64,000 nt of DNA. Origin: Flaccisagitta enflata. Taxonomy: Eukaryota. The stretch spans positions 35,154,001 to 35,218,000 of the forward strand of contig OZ231126.1 in NCBI GenBank assembly GCA_965153355.1. Direction: 5' to 3'. The position numbers and the translations under genes were made by a program. Below the pieces are notes generated by a model. It worked only from the letters and a program-made list of their open reading frames with translations. It had not been told where the DNA came from and ran no database searches. This document shows positions 2,610 through 53,967 of the stretch, piece by piece. The number at the start of each line of letters is the position of its first letter. Positions within the stretch are counted from its first letter, which is position 1.

Positions 2610-3243
2610 AATACTCGCAAAAGCGCTACATGGTCAGCGGTACCCGATGCTCCTAAGTTAGTTTATGTGGGAATGAGATTATGAGAGGGGCAGCGGCCCC
2701 GGAGGGGCCAATGACCTATGATTCCACATAGGACAATTTTCTCCGGTTTGAGAAGCTGGTTTGGAGGGCTGAGAGGCCTGATTTGGGGTCTGAAAGGTCT
2801 ATTTTAGGGTTTGAGAGGCGTGGTGTGGGGTCTGAGAGGCTTGATTTGGGGTCTGAAAGGCCTGATTTGGGTCTTAGGGTCTAATTTGGGGTCTGAGAAG
2901 CCTGATTTGGGGTCTGAGGCCTGATTTGGGTCTTAGAGGCCTGATTTGGGGTCTGAGAAGCCTGATCTAGGGTCTGGAAGGCCTGATTTAGGGTGTGAGA
3001 GGCCTGATTTGGGGTGTGAGAGGCCTGATTTGGAGTCTGAGAGGCCTGATTTAGGGTCTGGGAGGCCTGAATTGGGGTCTGAGAGGCCTGATTTGGGGTC
3101 AGAAAGGTCTGATTTTAGGTCTGAAAGGACTGATTTGGAGTGTGAGAGGCCCTATTTGAAGCTTGGGGGAGGGGGGGACGGAAACCAGAGAAAATTGCCC
3201 TATGTAGAATCATAGGTCATTGGCCCCTCCGGGGCCGCTGCCC
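2610..3243. mobile_element. Dispersed non-autonomous repeat family B: ~55-bp inverted repeats around a 21-bp minisatellite
   Basis: GGGCAGCGGCCCC..GGGGCCAATGACCTATG inverted ends with internal (GGGTCTGAGAGGCCTGATTTG)n. Related copies at ~9365-9820, 14060-15143, 20315-20390, 62097-62560 and 63680-63800. Confidence 0.75.
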
Positions 3244-10803: not shown

Positions 10804-11400
10804 CAGGGTCCGACAAAATTTTTTGCTGCCTACGAGCAAAAAATTTCTACTGGTCCCTGCCTACAAAACATGCGTATGATTTTCGCATAATTTCAGTGAC
10901 AAACAAAATTGATAGCAATCTGCAGTACATCAACCAAATGAATTTTGTGGGCAGGAATCATCTTAAAAACCTGATCATTTTCTTGACATGACCTTATATA
11001 GGTAGGACTTAATAAAATATTGTGTATGAAAAAAGTCCTTCGCTAAAGAAGATTTATATAAGCAATTCTACATCTATGTATCATTTGCTATTTGTTTACC
11101 ATGAATTTTAAAGGCAAAACTTTGTAGGCAGGAATTAATCAAATTTCACAATGTTTGAAATCTTTATTCTGTAATACCAGTTACTATCACAAACATTCTG
11201 TAAGCAGGTATTATTAGTTGGGCAATATCATCAATCAATCTTTTCCTTCCTTTTCCCCTTTTTTTCCCCTCTTCCTTTCTCTTTTTCCCTCTTTCTTTTC
11301 ATCTCTTCTTATACCCCCACTTTTCTTTCCTCTGCTGCCTACAAGACTGCTCGCTGCCTTGGAGCATTGCTCCCGTGCTCCCGCACTTTGTCGTACCCTG
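10804..11400. mobile_element. hAT-type MITE, copy 1 (597 bp)
   Basis: TIRs CAGGGTCCGACAAA / TTTGTCGTACCCTG; perfect 8-bp TSD TGTCTAAT. Confidence 0.92.
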
Positions 11401-11487
11401 TGTCTAATTGAGTAATGAGTATCGATGTGATTACGAAAGCAGCATGATACGTTTGAATCATTTTGTTCTATGCATGAGTGCGAAATA

Positions 11488-11991
11488 CATGGTGTTTCAT
11501 GCCAAATTAGATATAAGGAAACACTGCCATTCTGCTTTTAAAAATTCTAAGAAAAGATTCAAACAGCGCTTAAGCTCCAATTTTTTGTGTAAAAATTTCA
11601 AGGGTTTAGGTCAAATATCTTGACCACAACATCAATTTGAAATAAAATGAAGCTCTTTTAAAATGATTTTGATTTTAAAGTTCATCTTTGAAGTGCTCTC
11701 ACTTCTAAATGGCTTGAGTTACAGATGCCCGATTGGTCTCAAATTAAAGCTTAATGGCGTCTGTGGCACAAGCCGTTTCAAAATGAAAGTACTTCAAAGA
11801 CGTACTTTTAAAATCAAAATTATTTTAAAACAGCTTCTCTTTTAAATGCTCATTGTACTTCAAATTGATGTTGTGGCAAAAATATTTGACCCAAACCCAT
11901 GAAATTTCTACACAAAAAATTGGAGCTTAAGTGCTCTTTGAATCTTTTTTTCAGAACTAGTTTTGTATTTTTAGAAGCATGAAACACCCTG
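11488..11991. mobile_element. Palindromic Tc1/mariner-type MITE
   Basis: TA|CATGGTGTTTCATGC ... GCATGAAACACCCTG|TA with long imperfect inverted arms; related to 13416-13967. Confidence 0.7.
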
Positions 11992-12251
11992 TAGTGTTAA
12001 TCAGTGAGCTTAACAACAAATAAACAACTGCCTGAGGGTATAAACTTCATCGACCCGCTGTTTGCCAAATAAAAGATATGTTGTGTAAAAAGAATAAAAA
12101 AGGAAGAATAGAAATGGAACAAAGAGATAAAATACAGAAGCCAAAAGAAATTGAAAAAAAAAAAGATAGCAAAATGGACTTTTTCTTTGGGTTTGGAATT
12201 GGCGTGCGCAAAGCAGCGGGGAAAAAAAGAGGGGGAAAAAGAGAGAGAGAG

Positions 12252-12349
<98 letters not shown>

Positions 12350-12543
12350 GAACACGTAGAGAAAATAAGAATGAAATGAAATGATGAACATTTTGGTTGA
12401 GGGAGATGGCATAAAGATAAGGCAGAAGAAGAAGAAGAAGCAGAAGAAGAAGAAGAAGAAGAAGAAGAGGAAAAAGAAGAAGATAAGAAGAAGAAGAAGA
12501 AGAAGAAAAAGAAGAAGAAGAAGAGGAAGAAGAAGAAGAGGAA

Positions 12544-12578
<35 letters not shown>

Positions 12579-12742
12579 AGAAGAAGAAGAAGAAGAAGAA
12601 GAAGAAGAAGAAGAAGAAGAAGAAGAAGAAAAAGAAGAAGAAGGAGAAGAAGAGGAAGAAGAAGATGGTGAAGAAGAAGACGAAGAAGAAGTAAAAGAAG
12701 AAGAATAAAAAGAAAGAGAACAAGGTAAAGAAAAAGAAAAAA

Positions 12743-12773
<31 letters not shown>

Positions 12774-13415
12774 AGAAGAAGAAGAAGAAGAAGAAGAAGA
12801 AGAAGAAGAAGACGAAGAAGAAGAAGAAGAAGAAGAAGAAGAAGAAAAAGAAGAAGAAGAAGAAGAAGAAGAAGAAGAAGAAGAAGAAGAAGAAGAAGAA
12901 GAAGAAGAAGAAGAAGAAAATAGGAAATAGAAAATAGAAAATGGAAAAATAGGGGCATGGAAAGAGAAAATGGGACAATTTTTTTAGGGCTGGCAAAAAA
13001 AAAAATAGAAGCTACGCCTTTAGTCCACAGGCGGCCGAATGAAGCAACGCGCTGGAAGGCACGTTCCAAAGGAAAACCCTGAAAATTGACACGAGCCTAT
13101 AAAAGAATAATGTTTACATCGTCTTGTTGGGCTCTCAAACAGGCCGAAACGCCGACGCCGAGAAACACACACACACAAAGGGCGTGTTTCTAGTGAAGAT
13201 GAAAAACGCGTTTGTGCCCGTGAAACGAGATAACAGTGTGAACACATATTCAAGAATTTCAACTGTCCCACGAGGGAGTGAGCGAAGTGAGTGAGTGAGC
13301 CCGTGAACGGAGGGTAGCGAAGTGGAGCGCTGCAGAGCGAGTGAGTGGAGGAGCGGCGAGAGCGAACGAACGTAGCGAGCGACCAGTGGCAGGTTCAAAC
13401 GCGATTAACGACATA

Positions 13416-13967
13416 CAGGGTGCACACCAAATGATATGAAAACATGTTATTCTGCTTTAAAAATAATGAAACAAAACTGAAAATAGATTCATAGAGCCCT
13501 TAAACTCCGATTTTTCATGTAAAAATTTCATTGGTCTGGGTCAAGTAGTTTGGCCTCAGCAAAGATTCGAAAGAAAATGAACATTTTTAATTTTTTTCAT
13601 CCTAGAGATTTTTCTTTAAATCGCTCTCATTTCTAAACGGTTAGAGCTACAGATGCCAGATTGGACTCAAATGAAAGAAAATTTAAAAATCTTTAATATG
13701 AGATCAATCTGGCATCTGTAGCTCTAACCGTTAAGAAATGAGAGCGATTTAAAGAAAAATTTCTAAGATGAAAAAAACCTTGACTGAAAATGTTCATTTT
13801 TTTTCAAATCTTTGCTGAGGCCAAACTACTTGACCCAGACCAATGAAATTTTTACACAAAAAATCGGAGTTTAAGGGCTCTATGAATCTATTTTCAGAAT
13901 TGTTTCATTATTTTTAGAAGCAGAATGACATCGTTTTCTTATATATCATTTGGTGTGAAACACCCTG
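13416..13967. mobile_element. Palindromic (foldback) Tc1/mariner-type MITE
   Basis: TA|CAGGGTG ... CACCCTG|TA; the whole element is a near-perfect inverted repeat centred near 13690. Confidence 0.85.
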
Positions 13968-14165
13968 TAGAAACGCCCTCAAAGACGGAGATGGATACAT
14001 GAGAAGGAAGAGAATTACGAGATGGAAAGGAAGGAGAAGAAGGAAAATGAGGAGAGAGGAATAGGCGCAAAAGCGTCAGATGGTCAGCGTTACCCGTTGC
14101 ACCTACGTTAGTGTATATCAGATGTGGAGGTGAGAGGGGAAGAGGCCCCGAGGGAGCCAATGACC

Positions 14166-14762
14166 CAGGGTACGACAAAGTGCGGGAGCACGGGAGCAAT
14201 GCTCCAAGGCAGCGAGCAGTCTTGTAGGCAGCAGAGGAAAGAAAAGTGGGGGTATAAGAAGAGATGAAAAGAAAGAGGGAAAAAGAGAAAGGAAGAGGGG
14301 AAAAAAAGGGGAAAAGGAAGGAAAAGATTAATTGATGATATCGCCCAACTAATAATACCTGCTTACAGAATGTTTGTGATAGTAACTGGTATTACAGAAT
14401 AAAGATTTCAAACATTGTGAAATTTGATTAATTCCTGCCTACAAAGTTTTGCCTTTAAAATTCATGGTAAACAAATAGCAAATGATACATAGATGTAGAA
14501 TTGCTTATATAAATCTTCTTTAGCGAAGGACTTTTTTCATACACAATATTTTATTAAGTCCCACCTATATAAGGTCATGTCAAGAAAATGATCAGGTTTT
14601 TAAGATGATTCCTGCCCACAAAATTCATTTGGTTGATGTACTGCAGATTGCTATCAATTTTGTTTGTCACTGAAATTATGCGAAAATCATACGCATGTTT
14701 TGTAGGCAGGGACCAGTAGAAATTTTTTGCTCGTAGGCAGCAAAAAATTTTGTCGGACCCTG
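14166..14762. mobile_element. hAT-type MITE, copy 2 (597 bp, inverted relative to copy 1)
   Basis: Near-identical reverse complement of 10804-11400; 8-bp TSD CAATGACC; nested in an older repeat. Confidence 0.92.
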
Positions 14763-25503: not shown

Positions 25504-27084
25504 TGCCTATATTTGTTATTTTTCAATTTTCTGAAATTTTTTGTAGGGGTTTCTTACACAGGTATTCGACATTGTATAAAAGAAAAACAATTTTCAGGGT
25601 CACTTCATTTTGAAGCAACGATAGCCTTAAGTCACATGCAGGCGACTCATTTACCCCCGCTTAATGACATACTTGGTCCGTTGTGAATTGGTCGCTTCAT
25701 CTGTCATACAAAGAACTGTTTGGGCATAAACAGGCTTTTAATGCCATACAGTTGCCTTCTTGCTCGCTGTCCCTGCTCATCCGTATGTGACCGTCGTAGT
25801 TGCGTATTTAAACGGAGGCACAAAGTCACGTAACTTTTTGTAGATAATCATTTAAAAGCTAGAGATATATTCTTATTGTTACAAAAGAAAGCTTGAACTT
25901 GTGCTGAGTTTCTTTTACGACTTCTTGCCAACCAAGAGGCCGGTTTTGCGGTTTAATCCTCTTTGCCTCTTTGAGTTTGGAGCGTAAAACATATTAAAAA
26001 ATGGTTTGCTTTGACATTGGTCATGTTTACCAATGATTCTCCTGATGTGCTTATGATACGATAAATCTTTGTGAGAACAAAGACATGTATCTATTAGAAT
26101 TTTAGTTTTGAGAGGTCTTGATGTTTTGGTTTTTGGGTTTTGGGTTTTCGAAATTTACATCAGTTATGCTTATTCATGTCTTCCTGTCAGACCCTCTCTC
26201 TGTGACCTTGTCTCACACTTTCCGCTTTGCTTTCCATTTTGACGATGCAGTCTTGATGAAACTCTTGAAAGTCCTAAATTCATCACCGATATCGATGCCA
26301 ATGTGTGAATGCGAACATTCAATCATGGGATCGTCGATAAGTCGTTGTCGTCATTTCAGTCGTGATCTTCGCCTGAGACCAAAAAAACAGAAATAGACTG
26401 ATAATGATTGAAGCGGAGACAAGTATTCAATGGACAACAGATTTTGTCGATACTGATTTATGAAAAAGATCGTTCGCGTGAATTAGCTGTAATGGCTGGA
26501 GACTCTTTGATGGAAATACAACCAATTGCGTCTTTTCTGACAGACAGAATGTTGCAGAATATTTTTTTTTTATCTTTTTTTTCTATTCAAGTAAAGAATA
26601 AGTTTTTAATATGCAAGACGTGAAAGAATTGAATCCCCTTAGTCAAATTGAACTGCAATAAAACAAGAGTATGGGCTACTTTATTTGTAGTTTCTGTCTC
26701 AAGCTCAAAGGGATGTCAATGTGCCATTCTTAGCAATCTTCTTATGAATTTCTTTTATTCGTACGTGCGTAAATCACTCTGTCTAACTCCATCCATTGAT
26801 TCACTTCCTCTTTCCTTCACAAAAATACTACATATAAAGAGACAGATTGACTGACGGCACATTTTATCATGAAGACACTCTAGGGTAAACCTAATAAGGA
26901 TATCAAAGTTGCACTTCTTTTAGCTCTCTCTCTCTCTCTCTCTCCTTTTTTTTCTCATTGGCGGGGAAAACGGTCCGTCATTGAGTCTAATGGATTCGCA
27001 TTTATTTCTAATCTTATCAACTGCGTGTTATCGATCCTCAACCGCGCGCGTTCCAGCATTTCTCTCTGTTGCAGATGTGCAACA

Positions 27085-28480
27085 CTTACCCACTTTACCC
27101 TTTCATTTCCCCCACTTTACCCTTTCATTTTCCCCACTAAACCGTTTTATTTTCCCCACTCAACCATTTAATTTTCTTCACTGGACCCTTGCATTTTCCC
27201 CACGTTTCTCTTTCATTTTCCCCACTTTACCGTTTCATTTTCCCACTTTACCATTCCATTTTCCTTGCTTTACCCTTTCATTTTCCCACTTCACTGTTTC
27301 ATTTCCCCAACTTTACCCTTTCATTCTCCCCATTTAACCATTTTATTTTCTCCAATTTACCCTTTCATTTTCCCCACTTTACTCTTTCATTTTCCTCACT
27401 TTGCCGTTTCAATTTTCCCCACTTTACTCTTTCATTTCCCCCGCATTACTGTTTTATTTTCCCCACTTTACTCTTTCATTTTCCCACTTTACTGTTTCAT
27501 TTCCCCCACTTTACCCTTTCATTCTCCTCACTTAACCATTTTATTTTCTCCACTGTATCCTTTCATTTTTCTCTTTACCCTTTCATTTTCCCCACTTTAC
27601 CGTTTCATTTACCCACTTTACTGTTCCATTTGCCTCGCTTTACCCTTTCATTTTCTCACTTTACAGTTTCATTTCCCCCACTTTACCCTTTCATTCTCCC
27701 CACTTAACCGTTTTATTTTCCCCACTTTACTCTTTCATTTTCCCCACTTTACCGTTTCATTTTCCTCACTTTACTCTTTCATTTCCCCCCATTACTGTTT
27801 CATTTTCCCCTTTTTACTCTTTCATTTTCCCACTTTACTGTTTCATTTCCCCCACTTTACCCTTTCATTCTCCCCACTTAACTGTTTTATTTTCTCCACT
27901 TTACTCTTTCATTTCCCCTGCATTACTGTTTCATTTTCCCCACTTTACCCTTTCATTTTCCCCACTTTACCCTTTCATTTCCCACACTTTACCCTTTCAT
28001 TTTCCCCACTTTACCGTTTCATTTCCCACACTTTACTCTTTCATTTTCCCACTTTACTGTTTCATTTCCCCCACTTTACCCTTTCATTCCCCTTCTTTAC
28101 CGTTTCATTTTCCCCACTTTACTCTTTCATTTCCCCCGCATTACTGTTTCATTTTCCCCACTTTACCCTTTCATTTTCCCCACTTTACCCTTTCATTTTC
28201 CCCACTGTAACGTATCATTTTACCCACATTTCTCTTTCTTTTTCCCCACTTCACCATTCCATTTTCTTCACTTTACCGTTCCATTTTCCCCACTTTACTC
28301 TTTCCTTTCCACCATTTTACCGTTCCATTTTCCCCACTTTACTCTTTCTTTTTCCCCACTTTACCGTTTCATTTTCTTCACTTAACCGTTCCATTTTCCC
28401 CACTTTACTGTTACATTTTCCCCACTTTACCGTTCCATTTTCCCCACTTTACCCTTTTATTCTCTTTCATTTTCCTTACC
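27085..28480. repeat. ~22-bp pyrimidine-rich minisatellite
   Basis: (CCCCACTTTACCCTTTCATTTT)n variants across 1.4 kb. Confidence 0.9.
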
Positions 28481-29269
28481 TCCGCTCCTAGCTTTTTCCT
28501 TAAGCTTTTATTTTCTTTCTTTAAAATGGTTTTTCTTTTCAGTAGTACAACAACCCGTAAGTCAAGCTTTTGATTAAGTTAACAACTCCATTTAATGATC
28601 TTCTCGATGCTCAGTTTCACTTTCCTTATTATCACGAGCACTGGACTGGAAGTTAATTTTCTTTCTTCTTGTTGGCTAGTTTATTGGAGACGATTTTTAC
28701 CGGTTTGTTCATCACATTGTAAATAACTTAGGATCATTTGAGTTAGGCTTTGCTGTATTTAAACTAAGTGATGAAAAACATTTAACTGAAAAGGAAAATT
28801 TAAATTTAGAAAAAAGAAAAGAAAATTGAAGTGTTCTTGTTGTAAGTTATGCTAATTGATCTTTATCATCTCTTTCAAAACGATTTAAAGTGATTTCTGC
28901 AGTTCAACCAGATAAGCCTTTGTCATTTGATTTAGGTTCGTTTTGATTATAATTTTAGCATTCTATTATAATGTTCTCAAATTATTGCAGATGTTGAGAG
29001 AACAAAAACAGTCATCGACCCCTTCAACTTCAAGCACAACCTACTTAGGCAGGGCACGGGTACCGCTGACCATCTTACCCTTTTGCGACTATTGCTTATC
29101 CATTTACCCCAACTGCAAACCATAGGGGTGGGTCTTGTGGCGGCTGAGTGGTTACGGCTTTTGCAAAAAGGTCGATTACACGACGGTGTCAACTTTCCTG
29201 CCATATTTTCCCCCAAATTAAGCCCAATTTCCGCTTTCCAATATTTATTCCCGATATTCAAGAAGCACC

Positions 29270-31004: not shown

Positions 31005-31249
31005 GCGTCGTTTTTCATGGTCATGACAGTTGTCGTTGTCGTTGACGTTGTCGTTGTCGTTGTCGTTGTCGTTGACGTTGTCGTTGTCGGTGTCGTTGTC
31101 GTTGTCTTTGACGTTGACGTTGATGTTGACGTTGTCATTGTCTTTGTCATCGTTTTCTTAGTTGTCGTCGTCGTTGTTTTTTCCACGGGTAGTACTTAGT
31201 CTCGGAAGTGAACGTCGTGTTACAAATGGGAAATATTCCCGTCTCGTCT

Positions 31250-31850
31250 GCTACCCACTAATGGATCGCTGTAATTCATCACGAGTAAGTCATCAAGTGA
31301 TCTAACAATTAGACACTAGCCATTCATTAAGTTGTTCACTTGCCATCCACTAATGGATCGCTGTAATTCATCACGAGTAATTCATCAAGTGATCACACAA
31401 TTAAACAGTAGCCATTCATTAAATTGTTCACTTGCCACCCACTAATGGATCGCTGTAATTCATCACAAGTAATTTATCAAGTGATCTAACAATTAAACAG
31501 TAGCCATTCATTAAGTTTTTCACTTGCCACCCACTAATGGATCGCTGTAATTCATCACAAGTAATCTATTATGTAATCACACAATCAAACAGTAGCCATC
31601 CATTCACCTCTCCACTTGCTACCCACTAATAGATCGCTGTAACTCATCTAGTGATCATGCAATTACACAGTAGTCGTTCATTCAGTTTTTCACTTGCTAT
31701 TCACTAATGGATCGCTGTAATTCATCAAGTGATCATAAAATTTTACAGTCGTCATTCATTCATTTGTCCACTTGCTATTCACTAATGGATCGATGTAATT
31801 CATCAAGTGATCCCACAATTGCACTTTAGCCATTCATTCCTTAGTTCACT
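31250..31850. repeat. Tandem array of 92-bp then 78-bp units (7 copies)
   Basis: CACTAATGGATCGCTGTAATTCATC at ~31255, 31347, 31439, 31531, 31623, 31701 and 31779. Confidence 0.9.
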
Positions 31851-33243
31851 TTCTTCCCGCTGTAAAGTCACAACGGCGTTAACCAGCTGCATGCAGTAAC
31901 AATGTAACAACATTGAAACTGCCCCTGCCCAGTGTCACTAAAACGCGACTAGGATAGAGAGTTTTTTCCCTCGATTCTACTTTTCTCTTGAGCATCAGAT
32001 GCACACTTATATTACTCAGATGCTCACTGAGTTACTCAGTTACTCTACTTTTCTCTTGAGCATCAGATGCACACTCATATTACTCAGATACTCACTCAGT
32101 CACTCAATTACTCAGATGCATACTCATATTACTCAGATCCACACCCAAAATACGCGGATGCACACTAAAATTACGCGGATGCACACTCAGATTACACAGA
32201 TACACACTCAAAATACGCAAGTAGTATGGTATAGTACGCCGAACACCCTCGTTTTTTTTATGTTGATTTACACGTTCTCATAACATTTTAGTGAGTAAAG
32301 ACAATTAAAAAAAACATTGTCATTGCCTTTTACGGACACGGTTTATGATCGGCTTTTTGGTTCTGGTTTTGGTTTTCGTTTTTTTGTTTTTTTCTTTTTT
32401 TTAAAAAACATTCAGAACGTCGACATTTGTTTTTCTTTTATTTTCTTTACGCGCATGTGTTCACGATTGGCTCTGTTGATATGAATCTTTATAGTGTAAA
32501 AGGTTTAAGATGCAATATGACTAGAAATACAACAGCATTACATTTCAAACCTTTTCGTTAAAAGACGTTTTTAGTAGGAAGCCAATAAAGTGATATAAGA
32601 CGATGGACGGATGCGTTTGAAGAAAAGTGATTTGACGCGTAATTTAGGAAGCCGCAGGAGGATACAAAAATATCTGTGGTTTGATCTTTATTTCCTGCGG
32701 GTTACTAAAAGACGCGGCGCTCAATTGGTGCGAGAGATAGGTTGCGAAGAAAGTGAATCACCGCGTAATTAAGCAATACACTGTGGGTATAAGAAGACCT
32801 GTGGCTGTTCCTATTACCCCAGCATGTTACTAAAGGACGCGACGTTCGATGAACGCAAGTGACGAAGGAAGCGAAAGATTTACGCGAGAGATGTAGAAGG
32901 CGACACATATTTCCATACGAAAAGACTACCAGATCGTAGTTATTTATTGCTTTGGGCTGATAATCCCTTCATACAAATTCATATGTCCGTCAATAAGTTA
33001 TCGAAACTCTCTTATGTGCGTAACCAGGAGATTGACGACATGTAAGCTCTCTCTCGTCGCGGTAGCTGAAAGTTTGACGGTGACGAGATAAAATTTTGCG
33101 CGGCATTCTTTCAGTTACGCATATGAGCGAGCGACAGTAGCAGTAAGTATACGATCGCGATGTGAGGAAATATTTTTTTCTCGTATATTTTTATCGAAAG
33201 AAGATGCTATTTGATTTTTGATGTTAGTATTAGACGCAGTAAA

Positions 33244-36745: not shown

Positions 36746-37649
36746 TTGGCCTTTTGTTTCTTCTTAGATGAAAAGGAGAAGTACTTGGTATAGAGCTGAG
36801 AAATTAGGAACGGCTGAGTTAAGGAAAGGGTTGAGGAGGAGATGCACAGATATAAGGAATGGTTAAAAAACCTTGAAAGGCTTATTGAAAAAGTAAATTT
36901 TGATATATGGATGCATAAGTATATTGGAATGGCAGGTTTAAGGTTTTTGAGGTTCTTCTCAGGTATTTTGGTATACCCTTTCAGGTTTTTGGTAGTCCAT
37001 TTTAGGTGTATTGAAGGTACGTTTTTGGTTGTTGTATGAGAAATTGGGTAAATTATAATGCCTGAAAAGGTTTTTTATTGTTACTTTAAAGGTTGTTTTG
37101 ATTGAAATTTTTTTAAAGAGAATTGTAAAGGCAAAATGAAGTTTTGAAATACAAAATGGCATAGTAAATGTGATATGAAAGGTAGGAAGATTAAAGGGAC
37201 ATAGTAAGGTACATTTATAGTATTGGTAAATTTGAAGATTTTGGTTTGAGCATTTTTGGTAACATTTATATGGTGCAAAATACGGTTAGTTACCTAATGG
37301 TTCTATAGTCAGTTGACGGCTAAGATGAAAGATAGACAATACAGGTTAGTTTGATCATGAGATAGAACAACATAGATAGAAAGACAGAGATAGAAAGAGC
37401 GAAAAGATAACAGAGATAGAAAGACAGACATAGAAAGACAGAAAACATGACATGAAAAAAATGGAGGAGGAAGAGGAGTGAGGAAGAGGAAGAGGAAGAG
37501 GAACAGGAAATAAAAAAAATATATGAAAGTTAATAGGAAGAGGAAGAGAAATGGAGGAAAAGAAAGATAGAAAAGAAATATAAGGAGGCGGAAGAGGAAG
37601 AGGAAAAGCATATATATATATAAGCATGATTTTACAATTTTTATTCATA

Positions 37650-38723
37650 ATGATGGCTGAATTAAATGAAAATTTTTATTCCACAAAAACTCATAAATAT
37701 CCTCCGTCAAGTTTTCTACTTTTACTGGGAAATAGTAATTGTGGTATGCAACAAAAAAATACTTTTTATAGCTAAAATAAGACTTCAGATTTGAGGCCAA
37801 TACCTAGTTCTTATACTTTTGATTGGAAAATATTTTTCAAAGAAATTTGAGGCCAATACCTAGTTCTAATACTTTTGATTGGAAAATATTTTTATAGAAA
37901 TAATTTAAGCCCAATACCCTGTTCTAATACTTTTGATTAAAAATATTTTTCTTAGAAATTTGAGGCCAATACCTTGTTCTAATACTTTTGATAATAACTC
38001 GTTAAAAGTATTTTTGTTGCATATTTAATTTATGGATAAAAAGGAAAGACTACATTTTTATTGGAGACAATTAAAGACCATGAAAATCATTTTGTGACCA
38101 AGCCAACAAAGGTCATTTATTTTTTTCGCGAGGAGTGTAGTGCTGTGACAGAATTGAGAAAGTTTTTTTCTGAAAAAAATGATATTAAAGGATTGTTCCT
38201 AAGAAAGATTCCAGAGACAAATTTTATCGAAAGTTTGGGAATTGAAAAAGGATCCACTTGTATAATTTTTGACGACTTTCATGTACAAGCTTTATCAAGT
38301 GAGCCACTGAGGGAAACTCTTTTGAACCTCAGTAGTGTGTGGAATCACCATTATCAAATTGTGACATTTTATGTGGCACAGCAATATGACATGTTCCTGA
38401 AGTCGTCCAAACTGAATGGCCTTTTGGTTAACTCAACCCATATTGTCCTGTGGAGATCCAATCACGACGTTAAAACTATCAAAAGAAATTTGGATCGATA
38501 TTTTGTTAAGCTTAAAGGAGATCTGACATTGTGGAAAATATTTGAACGCTATGTTCAAAGTGAACAATATAAGTTTTTACTGATTTGTGTTTCTCCTTTG
38601 TGTCGACGGCCTTCGGTTTGGATGAATACTTTAATGTCGTCAGATGATCAAGTTCTTTCCTTCCATGAGTCGGACTCAGAATCGGATGATCAGGGAGAGA
38701 TTGATAGTGTGCAAGTACAGTAA
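37650..38723 (+). CDS. A32/FtsK-like genome packaging ATPase, 2 exons (37650-37743, 38044-38723), ~257 aa
   Basis: Splicing out GTATGC...AAG (37744-38043) rebuilds Walker A LLLGNSNCG|KTT. Walker B CIIFDDF and the A32-type NHHYQIVTFYVAQQ segment follow. Confidence 0.9.
37787..37992. repeat. 55-bp tandem repeat in the ATPase intron
   Basis: AGAAATTTGAGGCCAATACCT.GTTCTAATACTTTTGATT..AAAATATTTT, ~4 copies. Confidence 0.9.
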
Positions 38724-38734
38724 GCAGTCAATCT

Positions 38735-39064
38735 ATGGCGTGTCGAAAAAAAAAGCATTTAAGATCATTCTTAGATGCTTGTGTCACTGACTCCTTGTTT
38801 ACTAAGGATTTGAAGACCAACGTTTTCGTTTGCATAATTGAAATTGTGAAAAATTGCATGAAATCAAAGCTGAAGCATTGTTTCTCATCAAAAACTTTGA
38901 AATACATTGCCAAAAACATAAAACTTTTGAAATTCTTAAAAAGTAAAAAAATTTCTTTAAAAAAACGAAAAAAGAGATTCTTACGGTGTTCAAAAAAGGA
39001 GCAAAAATTGTTTTACAATCATATTTTGTATGATTTTATAAACAACTGTTTAGAATGTGATTGA
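38735..39064 (+). CDS. Small basic conserved Polinton/adintovirus protein (109 aa)
   Basis: CIIEIVKNCMK...KLLKFLKSKKISLKKRKK resembles the ICExxxNxLxG...LRxLxxKKxSxKKKK pattern of the small basic ORF I recall beside the ATPase in Polintons. Its stop overlaps the next ATG (TGATG). Confidence 0.65.
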   Translation: MACRKKKHLRSFLDACVTDSLFTKDLKTNVFVCIIEIVKNCMKSKLKHCFSSKTLKYIAKNIKLLKFLKSKKISLKKRKKRFLRCSKKEQKLFYNHILYDFINNCLECD

Positions 39065-40317
39065 TGGGCGAAAAAAAAATGAGTTCTACTAATCCCACTA
39101 GTTATGTGAAATCTCCTTTTTTGAAGTCGGTTTTAGACGAGGAAGGGACTTCATGCGAGGAAAAGATTGAGAAGATTAAAGGCCTTGTTGAGGGGAAAAA
39201 ATTATCCCTTTTGAAAAGTGGACAAAGTGCAACAGGAAGTAGTCAGACAAACAGCAACAATGCCCCCAATGGAAATGCACCATTGAATTCTAACAATAAT
39301 GGTAATGTGCCATTGGCTCCTAGCAACGAATCTGATGCTGTTTTGAGCGGATTAAGTGGGAATAAAGAGCGTCAACTTGGTGAAACAATTTTGGATGAAA
39401 TAAATCGAAGTAACTTAATTGACTATGACAAAAATACTTTTGAGATCATAGTGCAATCTGAAGTGATAAAGTTCTCAAACATAAAAAATTTGATTTCATT
39501 TTGTGTGACGTCAAACGCAGCGCAAATCCCAATTGGCTGCACAATTTTTATTGAAGCTTTAATGCAAATAAAAGCCTCAATAGCATCTCTGAGGAGTGGG
39601 GACGCTCAAATTATCAAAGAGGATTTATTGAGAGTGCGCGCTTTGCATGAACAAGATAGTAATTCTATGAGGCCATCGTTACCTAATACCGACGGAGGTG
39701 CGGAGGCTGACAGCGGTGGAGGGGAAGCAACAATTGAAAGTGGCGCTGGAAGCGGAGTGGCTGACAGCGGCGTTGGTAGCGAAGGTGTATCCGTTGAATT
39801 ACCAAGAGAGGGTATTGACGCGGAGATAGGAGACGGTAATAGAAGAGGGAGGAAGAGAAAGGTGGCGTCTTCTAGTGAAGAGGAATTGGCACCGGCGAAG
39901 AGACGGTTTAACGTTCCAGAATCGGATTTGTCCAATCTGAGGAGGTATGGTAATGGGAGTATGACACGGGAATGTTAAATGACTGTTTGCCTGATTGTCT
40001 GCCTATATGCTTGCATGTAAGCTTGTTTTTAGGTCATGTGTTTGTATACATGTCTGACTGTTGATTGGTTGCCTTCTAGTAACGGATAAGCGACTTTATA
40101 AGGGGTCTTGTCCGTCCGTCGGTCCATTGGTCCGTCGGCCGGTGCACCGTTCCGTGTGATCGAGTCTGGAAGTATGAAAACGCGCATTTACGCCCCTGCC
40201 CACTTTGTTCCTGTTTTTGTTTTTAGGAGTCCGAGGCTCGTATCAAAAATTGAGGAAGCTTGGTCTACAGGGGTTGTGGATGAACCCGCGAAAGGAAGAA
40301 GGAAAAAGAAAAAATGA
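39064..40317 (+). CDS. Conserved Polinton protein of unknown function, 2 exons (39064-39944, 40227-40317), ~323 aa
   Basis: ILDEINRSNLIDYDKNTFEIIVQSEVIKFSNIKNLI...PIGCTIFIEAL matches the Polinton WNxxGELIxxGxxIxGSNIxDL...PxGxxxFxxAL pattern. A GTATGG...TTTTAG intron joins LRR|SPRL, and the spliced stop overlaps the integrase ATG (ATGA). Confidence 0.75.
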
Positions 40318-41492
40318 GATCAAAAGTACGACAATTATTGGATTCTGGTTTACGTGATAAAAGTTCTCCATTGTTTCTTTCAAAAAACAAAACTGAAATC
40401 AAGAAGTTTTTTGAATCAAGAGGATTTGATATTGATGAAAAGGAAATAGACCAATATTTGCAAGAAGAACGGTCTAATGGCATCCTTATTAGAAATGATT
40501 CTGAACGGAAAAAAAAGGAAATATCTCGGGCGATGGTTTTAGCCCCAAAGTTCTTTTCTTGGGTATTTTCAGATGTTTTACATTTAAGTAAGAGTCGTGA
40601 TTATGGGAAAGATAGTACCAAATACGTGGTACTAATTGTTGACAGTTTGAGTTTATTTTGTTATTTAGCTCCATTAAAATCAACTAAAGCTGATGATTTG
40701 ATTTCTGCATTCAAATCTGTTTTTTTGCGTAGTCCTTATTTACCAGAGCATTGTGAACGTTTGAGTGTTGATATGGGTATTGAGTATCTCGCTAAAAAAT
40801 CGCGTGCTTTTTTTTCTTCTCATGGTATTCGTTTGAATCCCATCCCACCTAAAAGATTGGACCGAAGGTCGTATGGTGCAAATTTTGCAGAGGTCATGAA
40901 TAGGTCTCTGAGATCGTACCTCGAAAAACTTCAATTCAATGATGAAATGGTGAAGTTGACATGGGCAGAAAAATTGTTAGCCATTGAAAATAGAATGAAC
41001 AAAAAGGCAAGAGCTGTTTTTAAAGGGCACAGTAGCGTTGATATGTTATCGCAGTCGCCAAAATATGTACAAATGCTAAAATATGATCGGCGCTTTGTAA
41101 GTAGAAAGTTTTTAAAGGAACACATGAAAAATCCTAAAAATATTGTACTGTTTTCTATTGTGAAAATTCAAAAATACAAGCCTAAAGAAGGTTTGGGGTA
41201 CAAGGAAAGCTATTCATCTTTTTCATCACAGTTTTACATTGTTTTGGAAAGACATGAGCACGATCATATTTTTTTCTTTACCCTTGGATCAGTGTTTTCG
41301 TTACAGCCTGTGTCTGATTCGAAATTCTCCTTTTATGAGTTGAAGGTGTTTAATGAGGTATCTTTGGCCAAAGCTCGTTATCTTAATTGTCTTGCAGAGC
41401 CACTTGAAAAAAAAAACATTGGGGATTATTCATATTTTAAAGTGAAAAATTGTGATAAGGTTTTCTATGCTTCAAAACATGCCTTTGATTAG
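40314..41492 (+). CDS. int: Retroviral-like (c-integrase) DDE integrase, intact, intronless, 392 aa
   Basis: WVFSDV...YVVLIVDSLSLFCYLAPLKSTK...LSVDMGIEY...AEVMNRSLR: canonical rve core with D, D and E residues. Confidence 0.93.
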   Translation: MRSKVRQLLDSGLRDKSSPLFLSKNKTEIKKFFESRGFDIDEKEIDQYLQEERSNGILIRNDSERKKKEISRAMVLAPKFFSWVFSDVLHLSKSRDYGKDSTKYVVLIVDSLSLFCYLAPLKSTKADDLISAFKSVFLRSPYLPEHCERLSVDMGIEYLAKKSRAFFSSHGIRLNPIPPKRLDRRSYGANFAEVMNRSLRSYLEKLQFNDEMVKLTWAEKLLAIENRMNKKARAVFKGHSSVDMLSQSPKYVQMLKYDRRFVSRKFLKEHMKNPKNIVLFSIVKIQKYKPKEGLGYKESYSSFSSQFYIVLERHEHDHIFFFTLGSVFSLQPVSDSKFSFYELKVFNEVSLAKARYLNCLAEPLEKKNIGDYSYFKVKNCDKVFYASKHAFD

Positions 41493-45800: not shown

Positions 45801-46111
45801 GAACAACCTGTATTCCTTCTACAAGGAACAGAGCAAAAAAATCTGATTCATAGTGCTTTATGGGCATGTGTTTAAGTGCCCAAGTGCCCAAGTGCCCAAG
45901 TGCTAAAGAGCCCAAGTTTAAAAGTGCCCAAGTGGCCAAATGTTAAAATTTTGAAGTGCCCAAATGCCAAAGTGTTTAAATGCCTATATGTTTTTTAAAT
46001 GCCTTCATGTTTTTGAAATTCTAAAGAGATAAAGAAAGTAATTTTGCATGTGTTTTGATGTTATTTTTTTTAATTTTAAGTGCTGCTGTGACAAAGAAAA
46101 AAAAACTGAAA

Positions 46112-49089
46112 ATGGAAACTTTAGTGTCAGATTCAACTATTCAAATTTTGGATATATGTAAGCTATCCATCATCCCGGATTCCTTTGCTGGCATATATAG
46201 TGGATCAATTATTGATGTGGCACAGCAAATACGTTGAAAAATGCTACCACGGTATGAATATTGGTATTTGAGGGGGGGGGATATGAGATATGATAATGCA
46301 GTTGTAGATGGTTGGTACAGATAAATGGATCAATAGTTGCATATTCTTTTTTTTTGTATTTTCAGGTTACTTTCCAAATTCCCCCGAATGTTCCCTCCGA
46401 ACTGTATGGCAAAATGTCACATTTGATATTGACGGTGCATTTGAAAAAAACGGGTGGAAGTTATGAAAGTACAGACCAAATCAGTTGTGTCAACTTTCTT
46501 CCTTGTTTTTTATTCGAAACAATTAGAGTGTTAATTGGAGGAGATGAAGTAAGTATAGTGTGTATTGGTGGTGCTCATGCCCATGCCCACATCTATAGAA
46601 ATGCCCACGTTTGCATTTGTATATACCCATGCCCTGTATATACCCTTTGAAGTACATGCCCATGTCTCGTGCCAGTACCCATGTCTGTGCCCATTTGAGT
46701 GTTTAAGTTTATGCCCGTGCAATCGCCTGTGCCCGTGTCCATTACATGCCCGTGCCCGTGCCCCTGTCCGTGTTCGTGCCTGTGCCCAAGTACATGTTTG
46801 TGCTCATCCACAGATGTTTTGTTGGTGAATGATTGTGATTTTTGTTTGTACAGGTGTTTGAGGACGATCGCATAACAGATCATTTATTGTTTTTGCGTCT
46901 CATGCTGGAGTTCACTGAGCAAGAACGACAGACAGAATTCCATACTATGGCTTACCGAAAAGACACGGATGGTAACAGCGACTCATGTGAAACTGAACAA
47001 GACGGATTTTGTGTATGTAATTGTAAGTACTTTTTGGTATTTTGGGTATTTTTGGTATTTTCGGTATTGGTACCATTTTTTTGTCACATTGTAACAGTAA
47101 AGTTATATAGGATTTGTTACGCTAATTGACTCTAATAAATGTACTTTAGGCGGGCGCTGTTTTTGCAATCTCTTTTTTATCGATGGAATGGGATCTGGAC
47201 TTTGTGGTCTGAAGGATTATGATGCCATTGTCAAAGATGGGGTAAAACAAACTGCCGCACAAATAAAGGATACTTTACTCAAAAAAAAAAATTTCAACGA
47301 AGGTAAAAAAAGCCAATGAGAGAGAGGGGGATGAGAGTGTTTATTGAAGAGGGTTAGGGGGTAGGGGTAGGGGTAGGGGTAGGGGTAGGAAAAGATAATT
47401 ACATGTAGTAATAAATGTTATAACGTTTTAGGTCTTTACGAGCGATCAAAATTGATTCGCAAATGTGCTGAAACTGAGGGCATGGAATTTTGTGTCCCAC
47501 TGCGGCTGCTTAGCCGTTTTTTCGATTTAGGATTTCTGATACCTCAAAAAAGAATTGTAGGTCAGTGCAATGTATTTAGCCAACCGACCAACCGACCAAC
47601 TGACCAACCGACCGACACGGCCAGTCATAGATGCTTTTGTCGCACCTAAATTGTAATGCTTATTTAAAGAGGTCTCACTGGAGATGCACGGTGAAAGAAA
47701 GATTTTGATAAAGAACACGACAAATTCTGATAATTTTGAATTATCGCTTTTGAATGCTCGCGTGGCTCTACAATATTTCAAATTGGAAACAAATGTACGG
47801 ACAAGGTGAGTGTGGCGGCTACCCCAGATGCGTGTAGATGGGCAGGGGACTTAATTGAGGTCCACAGATCATTTTGGCAGGAGCAGTAAAGCCCAAAATC
47901 CCAAAACCCAAAAAAAAATAATAAAGTGTGACTGACGGACGGACGGATCAACGGACCAACGGACCTCCAAAGCGGGATGTAGAGTCACGCGTAACACGCG
48001 ACTAAAAAAATATGTGTTTGGTGGATTTTTATATATTTTTTCATTGATACTGTGTGGATTCATGGCATTTTTGTATTAATTTTACAGTTGGTACGATTTA
48101 ATAAATTCTGAGAGCATTCGTCGTGTCATTCCTGTCTCTCACATTAGGTATGTGCATGCAAGTAGACGGATGGACCAATTGACAGAGGGACAAGCTGATA
48201 GATGGACAGACAGGGTTGACCACAAACGGATCAGTTGTTAGAGTACAAGTAGTGTTGATGGTTCCTGTAAGTATGACAGTGAGATAGAGGGATTGACTGC
48301 TGACATGTATTGACACGTTTGCATACTTTTAGGCATTACACACTTCAGAAAGGATCGTCTCTGTACTTCCTTAACTCGGCGTGCTCATTCCAGCGTATCC
48401 CAGACTTGCTGGTGATTTTCTTTTCTGATGAGGTGAGTTTATAGGTTGAATTTGATATATTTTCACAGAAATTTGAGGCTAATACCTTGTTCTTATACTT
48501 TTGATTGAAAAATATTTTTATAGAAATTTAAGCCCAATACCTTGTTCTAATACTTTTGATTGAAAAATATTTTCATAGAAATTAAAGCCCAATACCTTGT
48601 TCTAATACTTTTGATTGAAAAATATTTTCATAGAAATGAATAAATGATTGTATCATACAGGAGAAATACCTTGGGAATTTCCAAAATCGCTTTGTGTATC
48701 ATCATGAGGACCTACAACAGATTGAGGTCTTCAAAAACGGCCAATTGGTGCCTCAACCCTCTTTCTTGAACAACATGGATCTTTCAAATGAAAATTCATT
48801 GGCTAATGACCATTGGTACCGTGAGTTACTTCGGAATTTCCCGAAAGCGGTCGACAGTATTTCCAGAGTGAAATTTCAAAAAGAGTTATATTTGTTTTGC
48901 TTCCCATTTGAATCCACTCCGAGGCATTTGATGAATTCAGATGATGGTTTGAATCTCATTTCCTCTGGAACTATTGATTTGCGGCTAAGATTCAAATCTA
49001 GCCTTACATCAAACAAGATTATTCAAATCGCTTCCTTCGAAAAATCACTGGTGCAATGTGATGCATCTGGGAATATCCTTGTTAATTGA
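46112..49089 (+). CDS. Double jelly-roll major capsid protein, 9 exons/8 introns, ~499 aa; 1-nt frameshift in exon 1 (~46229)
   Basis: Exons 46112-46251, 46366-46548, 46854-47022, 47150-47302, 47432-47560, 47670-47805, 48088-48147, 48333-48432, 48661-49089. All introns are GT-AG and phase-matched. The product has Polinton MCP motifs in order: VTFQIP, VNFLPCFLFETIRV, AYRKDT, NEGLYER, YTLQKG, GNFQNRFVY, GTIDLRLRF, VQCDASGNI. Confidence 0.9.
48467..48637. repeat. Same 55-bp tandem repeat in MCP intron 8
   Basis: Units start at 48467, 48522 and 48577. Confidence 0.9.
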
Positions 49090-50072: not shown

Positions 50073-53000
50073 GTGGTCTAAGTTATGCTGAAATAAATAA
50101 TGCGATAGATAGGGATTTGGACAGTACTGTCGCTGGAAATGACTATTGTGATGAATTAAGAAGAGTTGTTGAAGCCAACTGGAACACTGTAAGAAATCAG
50201 ATCACGGTTAATCCCAACATGATGGTGAGCGAATTTAATTTTCGTCTGTCAAGTAATCGCCCGCTTAGTGATGCCCATGTCCGTAACTGGTGGCCGTCCC
50301 CTCTACATGTGTCAAACTACCTCATAGAATTTGTGAGAGGGGTTTTATACCACTATTATGTCAGATTAAGGAGATCAGTAAGAATTCAGTTTAGTCCAAA
50401 CATGGCGATTATCTCAACTACTGGAGGGCCTAGTAACTTCATTTGGGCTTCCCGCAGTAATTGGGGGATTTTAGGCCAATCCTATCTCATACATGACATT
50501 CAATCATTTAACCATTTCATTGATGTCATTCTCAAAAATGAGGATTTACATCAAGCCATGTTAGCAAGTTTATCGAGTTTAAGCAGTAAATATAGTGACG
50601 GCTTTTGGCCCCGCTTTCACTGACATTTCATCTAACAAGTGTGCCCTCCAAGATATTTGGCAACAATGGAAGATGTTTAAGTGAGCATAAATGTACCGAT
50701 GGTAGTTGTGACAGCAATGCATGTGTGTGGCTTGCATTAAGCAGTATTTTTGACGTGGACAAATGTGGAAATGCAAAAAGGATGAGTTCAGAAATGGGGA
50801 AAGGAAAAGGACAAGGGCAAAGAACAAAGTTAACAGAAAAATATGCAAAGTTAGGGAAAAAGTTTTTGGCATGGCTGAAAAAAAGAGGAAAGGAAAAGGA
50901 CATTCTTTCAGAGAAAATTGGTCATTTGGGATTACCAGAAAGATACTTAGGCGAATTGGAAAAATTCTTAGGTCATTCCATGATTTTGCTAAGTGAAAAA
51001 ACCATGAATATGAGAAAGGTTGCCAATGACACAGTATTAAAAACTACAAAATATCAAAGATACTTCTCTTCAAAGAATGTGTCAGACAGTGATTACGGGA
51101 ATTTCATTTATCTGTTAACCAAAAATGAAAACCACGTGCAGACAGTGCTAAACTTACAGAAATATTCTCGAAAATTTGTATGTTCAAAATGCACAAGGTG
51201 TTTTTCTCGTATAGAATGGTTAGAATATCATCAAAAGTTCAAAGTATGCGAAAAAAAACGCTTTGTTGCCGAGAAGCAAGTGAATTTTCCCTATTCCGCG
51301 GAAAAAATTGTGTCAGAAACGGTTGAATTTGAACATTTGAGCATTTGCAAGGATACCAAGTACACTCATTGCTTAATTAATGTTGAAAAGGACTCATCAG
51401 TGAGTTTGACGATGCAGATTGATTTGAAAGGCACTGATCAAATGTTGATGTCAAGGAGATTTGAAAGTTTAGGGGAATGTGCCTCATTCATCATGAAATT
51501 CGGAGCAAAATGTGCCATATGGGTCTTAGGAGAAAGATTAGTGTTGCACTTTGACTCACTACAAAAAATAGAAACAGCAGCAGTTATGAAAATTGCGACC
51601 CGGAAGCAATCGATAGGAGCAAATTGAAGCATCTGCAGATGGTTAAAACTGAAATTGTCAAATATTTGAGCAAATATGACATTTATTTGTCAGTTGGCCA
51701 GGAAGACCCCAAAATAGTGAGCAATTTTATGTTTGAATTGTTGTCAATGCTGAGCGATGGTCGAGAATGTGAAACCATACATGTCAAGTTCGATCAAAAT
51801 GTGCTACAATTTGTTGCTGTAGACCAATTTCCTCTGAATTTTATACTGTTAAATAAATTTGGAGCAACATTTCAAGGGAATATAGCGACTGCAGACATGT
51901 TGGCACATTTCAATGATACTGTGAGTTTGTTCAAAAGTGAATTTGGACTGAATATTGTGGGTCAAAGAAATTCAACTCAGATCGGTAGGCATTTAATGGC
52001 CAGTACATTAGATGAAGGCAGGAGAAACGCCCTGTTTTCCCCGCCCTTGGCTTTTTCTCATGAACTAGACGAAACATTTGTTTCATACGGAGTATTAAAT
52101 GCCAAAAAAGCATTTGTCATGATCAAGGATTTATGAAAGGAGCAATGAATGTGGATTTCGAAAAATTTTATGGCCATTTAGTATTGAAAAAAAATGCTAA
52201 TTGGATGTTGGTCGGACTGCCGCACATGTACGTGAGAAAAGGAACAACATATGTCACAAAACAGAGTCGAAAGCGTCACACATTTTCTAACATGATTTTA
52301 GGCGTTATAGAGTTTTGTTGAGACGCTCTGTTTTCTATATCTCACTTAAATGGTCAAGAAAATATGAGATATGGAATGCTATTCGATGCTATTCTCAAAA
52401 TCGAAGGGAACGAGGTGTTCTATGAAGCCGACGGGTGCATATGGCATAGTTGCCCAAAAATATGCCATTTAAGTGAAGCTAATGTGATGAAAGGTCACAA
52501 ACCGTACTGTGACGCATGCAAAAATGACGAAATGGTTGGCGATGGTAGCGCCCACTTGAAATTCTTAAAGCCTCGACTCTGGAAAATGAGAACAAATGAA
52601 CAAAGAGATTCGGTCCACGCTCTGAAGAAAAACGTTACCTATGATGAGGATTACAAAAACACGTTAGAGAAGGCGGCACTTATGTATAAAAGAAGCGGAA
52701 AAAGAATTGTAAGCGTATCCGAATGCCACGTGCTGCGTTTTTGGCATAAAAGTATTGGAGCATTTATGGACAGTCTAAAACTGCCATGTAAATTTGACTG
52801 TCGTGATATACAGTTATCAACACTTGTGGAGCAGATAACCATGCAAAATTTCCCTCTGCTAAGATATGGAGCATTGACTCATGATAAGGTGATAACTGCA
52901 ATCAAACATGGAGATTTGAATGGCTTTGTGAAATGCACCACAGTTGCAGGAGACAAAACAAGGCATAACTTAGGAGTTTTGAAACCTTTTTTTTACACAA

Positions 53001-53967
53001 AAGATGGTATTTCACAGACTAGTTATGACGTGGAGGACAAAATTGTCTCAACTCTGATTTTGAGGGAAATGCTAACCAATGGTTTAACCAGTGATTTCTC
53101 AATTACTGCTATCACTGAAATCATTGAATACCGCGTCTCAGCATCAAACCCCTTTCATACACTGGAGGCGCCAGTGTTCAACGCTTTTAAGAATTATAAG
53201 CAATGCACTGGGTTTATTCAAATACTCAAAGGAAGTTTGAATTCTGCTATTGGAGCGTTTGGCATATCTGGACACAAGCATAAAAATAGCTATCTAATGA
53301 ATGAAAACGATATAAAAAGCATACAGGATCTGCATAATCTCTCTCATGGCACTCAGGTCAATGCAGAGAAAAGACTTTTCCATTTTGCAAGTTCATCGAG
53401 AATTTGTAACCTTAAACAATTGCATATGGCCATAATATCAAATGGAATCTCGATATTTATGAACTTTTTTTTGACGTGGAATTTTTATTTTCTTGGAGAA
53501 GCAGTACGTTTTAACACCGATGGTTTTTTAACTATGTTTAACCGAGCTTTCACCCCAGAAACACTATGTTCTAGTACATTAACTAGTGTATTGCTAGATC
53601 ACCATTTAAAAGTAACTATGAATACAGAGGAAGCTAATAGGTATTTTAAATGGAAAAAAAAGTTTTTTATTGCTTTGGACGAGATTCGGATTTGACCATA
53701 TTTTAAGTCACCCTATTGTATACGTTAGTTAATGGTGATATGTTTAAACAACGTACGTGATGCATTAATTACATGTCTAATGGTCTTGATTTTCCTGTGA
53801 AATTGGAGTTTCTTGGAAATGTATCAGTCGTGACCTCAGTCAACAAACTGTCCGTATTCAATAGCTATAAAAATGAGTATTTCATAAAGTGCAGTGGTAG
53901 CACTGATGAGTTTTTGTCAAACATCCACATGTACAGTTATGATCAGTTGAATGAAAAACTCTGTTAA
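50069..53967 (+). pseudogene. polB: Protein-primed family B DNA polymerase with N-terminal terminal-protein region, Zn finger and Vsr-like insert; disrupted
   Basis: Six ORF pieces linked by four -1 shifts and in-frame TGAs. Motifs: VRIQFSPN...FIWAS, DSNACVWLAL, FVCSKC...YH, A: NVDFEKFY, Vsr-like FYEADGCIWHSCP, B: KGSLNSAIG, C: RFNTDGF, and C-terminal KLEF...IKCSG. Confidence 0.85.

Follow-up and report, generated by a model that had tools for sequence, protein, structure and literature searches.

A probable old spliceosomal intron inside the Walker A motif of a putative Maverick/Polinton-like packaging ATPase

Introduction

A packaging ATPase depends on its P-loop, and at the locus studied here the P-loop is encoded in two pieces with 300 nt between them. 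Is the insert an intron that is removed from the RNA, or has it killed the gene? If it is an intron, was it made by the repeats that it now contains, or is the site older than they are?

We approached these questions with the frames and signals of the locus itself, its sister copies, its distant relatives and public sequencing contigs. Below, the window is the whole 64,000-nt stretch of DNA that was analysed.

Materials and Methods

All or part of the stretch is contained in 20 public runs, four of them recorded as RNA. The 24 runs listed comprise marine metagenomes, DNA of one organism and one run without an organism label. Contigs of two RNA runs and two DNA runs were compared with the window, and the two RNA libraries (X11 and X14) come from one study.

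Sister copies were followed as ORF translations from public contigs, their DNA being unseen. Deep relatives were placed in a quick IQ-TREE tree of 29 rows with the N-termini cut at GK, from which 14 fragment representatives of the 38 found, P0005 and P0006 were excluded. The outgroup was the seven most distant rows, all uninterrupted and including three Pox_A32-positive relatives.

The split Walker A codon

The ATPase gene consists of the following parts.

37650..37743, + strand: ATPase exon 1, with the ATG at 37650, a beta-strand and the first part of Walker A (…FLLLLGNSNC plus the first base of the second Gly codon)
37744..38043, + strand: intron of 300 nt, phase 1, GT..AG, with donor G/GTATGC and acceptor GGATAAAAAG/GA
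38044..38723, + strand: ATPase exon 2, with the rest of the Gly codon (GA AAG ACT = G/KT), the ATPase body and TAA at 38721-38723

Read in frame from 37650, the exon 1 product is MMAELNENFYSTKTHKYPPSSFLLLLGNSNC, followed by the first base of the Gly codon at 37743. Beyond that codon exon 2 encodes K-T-T-F-L-L, and it amounts to 225 aa alone. When 37743 and 38044 are joined in a script, the product is in frame, the Gly codon is rebuilt as GGA and the loop reads GNSNCGKT. Unspliced, the frame continues as G-MQQKNTFYS and stops at 37773-37775, nine codons past the Gly, so that translation of the RNA would end at 41 residues. Just 5′ of exon 2, its frame meets a stop, the TAA at 38037-38039.

The ends are GT..AG and the excision restores both the frame and a conserved motif, as in a U2-type intron. 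At the 38043 acceptor, the pyrimidine tract and the YAG expected of this type are absent. The sequence there, …TTTATGGATAAAAAG/G, has an A at -3 (AAG), and its last 10 nt are purine-rich with few pyrimidines. The preliminary description of this DNA had placed the cut inside the second Gly codon, expected an early stop in unspliced RNA and called the pyrimidine tract weak; reading the letters and frames bears out all three, with every coordinate.

Upstream of the gene, a run GCATATATATATATAAGC at 37608-37625 lies 25-40 nt 5′ of the start codon and is a possible TATA-type promoter element.

Identity of the ATPase

By sequence the gene appears to encode a packaging ATPase of the A32/FtsK-HerA type. 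The Walker A pattern [GA]xxxxGK[ST] behind a hydrophobic strand is present only once 37743 and 38044 are joined (FLLLLGNSNCGKT). The spliced product aligns with residues 3-229 of the relative P0011 at E 9e-36, gap-free over the junction, and P0017 and P0018 behave alike. Their uninterrupted loops (CSLLAPSNAGKS, CSIFGISNSGKS and LVLLFGQSRSGKS) align with FLLLLGNSNCGKT of the window. The gap-free alignment shows true homology in the split P-loop; its GK is not there by chance. The alignments of the spliced product with uninterrupted relatives begin at about residue 7-20, so exon 1 is the true N-terminus of the ATPase.

The second nucleotide-binding motif is found in exon 2.

38271..38276, + strand: Walker B aspartates (…CIIFDD), D78 and D79, unchanged in all of 23 aligned sequences

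Exon 2 alone (225 aa) matched no Pfam family at E<=0.01 and no PHROG. Among 1.84 billion representatives, a full HMMER (phmmer) pass identified 38 relatives with E<=1e-3; for 20 of these E is <=1e-10. The link to Pox_A32 (PF04665) goes via these relatives and not via a Pfam match of the window ATPase itself: the cut-off of 22.8 bits is passed by the distant relatives P0040 (42.1), P0035 (32.3) and P0034 (24.9). The family profile gave generic P-loop matches only against the PDB. Pox_A32-positive relatives and the invariant Walker B DD, together with the sister copies described below, support the earlier naming of the gene as a packaging ATPase.

The surrounding element

Other genes of a viral type follow on the strand of the ATPase.

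40284..41492, + strand: integrase-like open frame, 402 aa, with a Pfam rve (PF00665) match at E 9e-5 and 23.1 bits, under the cut-off of 32.6
48433..48660, + strand: putative second intron, 228 nt, phase 0, in a capsid-like gene (GAG/GTGAGT … CATACAG/GAG), the flanking open frames being in one frame
48661..49089, + strand: capsid-like last exon, with an Atlas feature score of 0.97, taken as a lead only
52322..53695, + strand: putative protein-primed polymerase, with 22 of 30 Atlas matches in PF03175 DNA_pol_B_2 clusters and a score of 0.93

An rve-like integrase together with a putative protein-primed polymerase and a capsid-like gene, all on the ATPase strand, suggests a Maverick/Polinton-like element. 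The Atlas clusters for the capsid-like exon belong to Preplasmiviricota; DJR-like_dom is carried by 31% of the members of one cluster, and Capsid_NCLDV by 10% of members. The exon itself had no Pfam or PHROG match. The integrase-like frame had no match in the PDB. The polymerase gene is spread over several frames, and its pieces had no Pfam match. PHROGs gave nothing for five ORFs of the window.

The splice signals of the 48433-48660 interval are much better than those of the ATPase intron. The capsid-like gene 5′ of it (46025-48432) is read as many short frames between CA/GT microsatellites and other repeats, which would mean either several more introns or decay. Since this gene is in so many pieces, the present copy of the element may be decaying. 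The long terminal inverted repeats with a 6-bp target duplication that mark Maverick/Polinton elements were not found: in the window, 37-54 kb is not enclosed by any inverted pair, and the ends may be elsewhere or decayed.

Several further features of the window were recorded. Between the ATPase and the open frame 39061-39978, there is a basic, Lys-rich open frame of about 109 aa (38736-39064, from ATG 38736) that has no annotation. Between frame 39061-39978 and the integrase, a depth of 240,000-318,000 in run X6 and a high depth in the RNA runs at 40014-40279 come from a GTCC/CCGT-type simple repeat with short matches in five other regions of the window, not from an RNA gene. Rfam and tRNA scans gave nothing at 40014-40279, and no tRNAs were found. 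A scan for bacterial promoters and terminators was empty, which is irrelevant for this DNA.

Farther away, 601-nt inverted repeats at 10804-11404 and 14162-14762 are 99% identical and 2.76 kb apart, and the interval 10804-14762 looks like a young element with long inverted repeats, unrelated to the ATPase intron. Two tandem arrays (27083-28465 and 31249-31854) show self-matches of 80-84% across up to 1.2 kb. A 439-aa open frame at 27172-28491 lies entirely within the first of these long arrays and had no Pfam match.

Arms, array and fold of the insert

The insert is largely made of repeats, and one of them recurs in the second intron.

37745..37757, + strand: left inverted arm TATGCAACAAAAA, 13 nt, 100% complementary, overlapping the donor
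38011..38023, + strand: right inverted arm TTTTTGTTGCATA, ending 20 nt ahead of the acceptor
37789..37992, + strand: tandem array, 3.6 copies of a 56-nt unit (period 56, 86% matches)
48455..48637, + strand: another array of the 56-nt unit, in the second intron, with about 3.3 units and 89-90% identity to the array of the ATPase intron

The inverted terminal arms, the 56-nt array and the second array copy in the element's other intron had no mention in the preliminary description. A 13-nt arm length is reached in 2 of 5000 dinucleotide shuffles and in 1 of 425 real 300-nt tiles of the window. TA borders both arms and is too short to count as a target-site duplication. No further copies of the arms were found in the window, and the second array copy (48455-48637) is without them. 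The array unit occurs in other contexts too, in contigs of X1 (record 1) and X14 (record 20). A loose end at 37834 in X6, taken at first as a new repeat context, is the second intron (48431-48460).

The 56-nt units contain acceptor-like T-runs followed by AG, and these decoys, three in the array, look better than the true acceptor. Folded as RNA, the intron reaches a minimum free energy of -57.4 kcal/mol; shuffles average -44 (sd 4.27), which gives z = -3.14, and none of 200 is as stable. In the predicted fold, the intron ends pair and enclose the whole repeat body, with the donor in the stem and the 20-nt acceptor tail unpaired.

By its 300-nt size and stable fold the insert might alternatively be a group I or group II self-splicing intron, or some other RNA element. 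However, no Rfam family reaches its gathering score anywhere in the window, self-splicing introns included, and the single Rfam match at E<=1 within 37500-38200 (17.8 bits) lies inside exon 2. Moreover, the insert has GT..AG ends around a tandemly repeated body, and we hold such an origin to be hardly conceivable.

The arms raise another origin. An element of the MITE or introner kind, bounded by terminal inverted repeats, would have landed in an intact P-loop codon and been spliced out since, making a young intron. The rarity of perfect arms in the shuffles, the TA at both borders and the recurrence of the array in the second intron and in other contigs all speak for it. Introners are moreover reported from dinoflagellate Maverick-Polinton-like proviruses (PMC11957031, PMC12166617). 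Against it, the arms are missing from the second array copy and from the rest of the window, and excising the arm-bounded piece would leave about 23 nt. The age of the site also bears on this origin and was approached with the sister copies and the deep relatives.

Sister copies

On the exon-1 side, all six clusters read …GNSNCG-M-Q…, which fits at the peptide level the window donor GTATGCAA, and none of the six goes into GK. Past exon 1, the clusters P0076, P0077 and P0078 are as the window. P0079 (10 members) departs after MQQK, and its tail matches the repeat unit weakly (E 0.35). P0080/P0081 (27 members) continue past the donor with MQMKIIEKENIV…, unrelated to the window intron. An X6 DNA contig tracks the window to 37751 and then departs into P0080/P0081-type sequence; this lineage shares the first 8 intron bases with the window and differs in the rest.

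On the exon-2 side, six close clusters have 131-217 aa, none reaching the P-loop, and their listed members have 66-242 aa. P0093 (22 contigs), the longest of them, matches exon 2 at 83% identity across 225 aa and has 16 unrelated residues immediately before GKS, its last pre-Gly codon being consistent with an …ACAG acceptor. An ORF spanning both exons (123-394 aa) is found neither among the six close clusters nor among their listed members. As for the sister DNA, metagenome contigs gave 595 pattern matches, none of which was confirmed, viral contigs gave nothing, and an exact 24-nt scan of metagenome contigs gave nothing.

The sister lineages appear to share the intron site and to differ in the intron body. 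An uninterrupted P-loop together with an insertion flanked by a target-site duplication, which the preliminary description had named as the finding that would refute its reading, did not turn up, and the intron is in all sister lineages seen.

Deep relatives and the age of the site

The 38 representatives were sorted by eye and by a pattern search for the state of the P-loop. It is uninterrupted in 11, interrupted before GK[ST] in 7 and ambiguous in 1, and the other 19 start downstream. The interrupted seven (P0009, P0012, P0014, P0015, P0016, P0028 and P0033) have an unrelated stretch just before GK in which I, L, F, Y and K abound. P0009, which formally fits A-x4-GKS, starts 7 residues before the loop without the strand and was counted as interrupted. 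The ambiguous relative, P0019, starts with MSGKS.

A phase-1 intron ending in AG predicts both a G before the K and a codon ending in A before that G. Both features are seen in six of the seven interrupted relatives, where G precedes K and the residue before it is encodable by a codon ending in A. In P0016, a stretch resembling exon 1 is followed by 18 in-frame residues and then GKTT, as would be expected of a short intron, about 57 nt long, that stays in frame.

In the tree, four closer uninterrupted rows fall into one clade with three unknowns (SH-aLRT 97). All eight interrupted rows, the window included, lie outside that clade, and the state needs two changes. As judged by ORF read-through, the intron position is common to the sisters, at 80-91% protein identity, and to relatives at 30-42% identity.

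The interrupted site is common to deep relatives, so it would predate the repeats and appears to be much older than those now within it. This argues against an intron made by a young transposon: relatives at 30-42% identity have the site with unrelated residues before GK, one sister lineage keeps the first 8 intron bases with other content, and a recent gain, with the site empty in related genes, is not borne out. We consider that origin quite improbable. From the shared site and the divergent sister content, the repeat at most colonised an already existing intron. The sisters and distant relatives common to the site also support an intron over a lethal insertion, which were the two possibilities first put forward.

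Selection on the exons

The gene may still be dead, the insert or its later growth being no longer removed, so that no packaging ATPase comes from this copy and the locus is a decaying relic. The weak acceptor, the decoys within the repeats, the window's lack of element-level terminal repeats and the fragmented, microsatellite-rich capsid-like region all fit such a state. The substitution pattern bears directly on it.

Differences were taken from contigs matched to the window at a likeness of at least 88%, with 40 substitutions listed and 8 more existing. Among those listed, 5 of 6 in ATPase exon 1 and 7 of 8 in exon 2 are synonymous (12/14 for both exons), as are 8 of 10 in the integrase frame (40284-41492). 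The intron (37744-38043) has 9 listed substitutions. Of the nine listed indels, six fall in the intron; the integrase frame and both ATPase exons are free of them, and one affects the opening codons of frame 39061-39978, before its second ATG.

Both ATPase exons are under purifying selection. Exon 1 would be useless unless spliced to exon 2, and its constraint argues that the intron is, or very recently was, removed. A dead gene is also at odds with the two exons being open, with the retention of exon 1 in six sister clusters and with the mostly synonymous variation of the integrase. We regard it as unlikely.

RNA and contig evidence

The junction 37743^38044, proposed earlier as the check on splicing, was not found in RNA: it is absent from the contigs of the two RNA and two DNA runs, contigs being a form of data that drops rare forms. 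This negative result is the chief weak point of the intron reading. The contigs of the two RNA libraries show the unspliced form alone, which is the remaining point in favour of a dead gene. They cross the donor unspliced in X11 (37620-37787) and X14 (37620-37762) and the acceptor unspliced in X11 (37796-38568). Their depth of 3-7 is like that of intergenic stretches, e.g. 38831-39172, and they may therefore be genomic DNA carry-over, read-through RNA or unspliced pre-mRNA. The stretches 38019-38151 in X14 and 38285-38949 in X1 have no cover and are uninformative.

Two other joints were considered as splices and rejected. The sole joint within the intron, 37787 to 37921 (skipping 133 nt), is in RNA and DNA runs alike and, being present in DNA, reflects copies that differ in how many tandem units they have. 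A joint at 39062-39188, which skips 125 nt at the start of frame 39061-39978, is in RNA X11 and in DNA X1 and X6 and is a DNA length variant.

In one X14 RNA-library contig, position 38180 is followed by six other letters and then by 37933, as in a rearranged copy or an assembly chimera. Contigs of X6 are near-identical to the window over 37652-41092, with a word depth of about 2,800-3,300 along the element compared with 10-11 in the metagenome X1. At a likeness of at least 88%, 1,544 contig pieces match, mostly 90-95% alike. The depth in X6, which is no copy number, and the divergent pieces suggest a very large, diverged family or an amplified form.

Discussion

The insert in the Walker A codon is probably an old phase-1 spliceosomal intron of the U2 type (GT..AG), whose body has been inflated in this lineage by a small repeat with inverted ends. 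We infer that this particular copy is spliced, and a role of the stem would likewise be a matter of inference.

In the proposed mechanism, the element would be transcribed in the nucleus and the host spliceosome would join 37743 to 38044, giving GGA (Gly) and the loop GNSNCGKT. A functional P-loop would then come from spliced nuclear RNA only. The inverted arms could pair and loop out about 250 nt of repeats, which would bring the donor within about 20 nt of the acceptor region, yet bury it. The purine-rich AAG acceptor, the decoys within the 56-nt units and the burial of the donor in the stem may make splicing inefficient, which could amount to regulation or to decay; the preliminary description had suggested inefficient or regulated splicing from the weak pyrimidine tract.

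A core morphogenesis gene would thus be readable only after splicing, with the intron site conserved in part of the family. Surveys of integrated viral elements usually rely on plain ORFs and assume intronless viral genes, as stated in two sources (PMC9356565; 10.1101/2025.04.19.649669). An ATPase readable only after splicing would lead such surveys to score the element as ATPase-less and dead, whereas the substitution pattern says that such elements are under selection. Splicing implies the nucleus and so bears on where these elements are expressed. The locus is also a concrete one for asking if intron retention controls virion production.

A wider reading is that a whole marine clade of Maverick/Polinton-like elements keeps spliceosomal introns in its virion-module genes (the ATPase P-loop and the capsid) across deep divergence and under purifying selection. 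We offer this as a speculation that has some chance of being right, though not a large one. If true, the production of the capsid and the packaging motor would depend on the host nuclear spliceosome, and the elements would be viruses expressed by the host in its nucleus, in contrast to those of the virophage type, which rely on the cytoplasmic machinery of a giant virus. Where splice sites are weak and buried in a stem, intron retention could then switch the packaging motor off. The introns would also shelter a small inverted-end repeat that travels with the element between hosts.

Exon-intron models have been drawn for some invertebrate Polintons. A search of full-text literature turned up no paper on an intron with a conserved position in a Maverick/Polinton ATPase.

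The putative product resembles Maverick/Polinton packaging ATPases in its P-loop GxxxxGK[ST], its Walker B hhhhDD and its size of about 250 aa, and its neighbourhood has the rve-like integrase, the putative protein-primed polymerase (pPolB) and the capsid-like gene. The genes of intact vertebrate Mavericks are reported as intronless in one study (PMC8097293). The present gene differs from that account in that the P-loop codon is split, at a site conserved in part of the family.

The dinoflagellate proviruses of the Maverick-Polinton-like type carry introners, about 25% of the viral ones being in coding regions (Gozashti and Corbett-Detig 2025; PMC11957031 / PMC12166617). The likeness is that of an inverted-end repeat family appearing as an intron in Polinton-like genes of a marine eukaryote. 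Compared with those introners, which are described as young family members mostly outside coding regions, the site here appears older than the repeat; there are only two array copies in the window, and the arms are bordered by no more than TA.

There is also a likeness to the colonisation of pre-existing introns by repeats or MITEs, as the array is in two introns and its unit number is variable at the DNA level. In a compact element under selection, insertions survive only where they are spliced out.

The adenovirus packaging ATPase IVa2 is made from a spliced mRNA, with an intron near the start codon. By analogy, it would be a packaging ATPase of a related virus lineage that likewise needs host nuclear splicing. 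The intron here is instead inside the Walker A loop, and no homology of the two introns is implied. Set beside these systems, the split Walker A codon is an ordinary mechanism in an unusual place.
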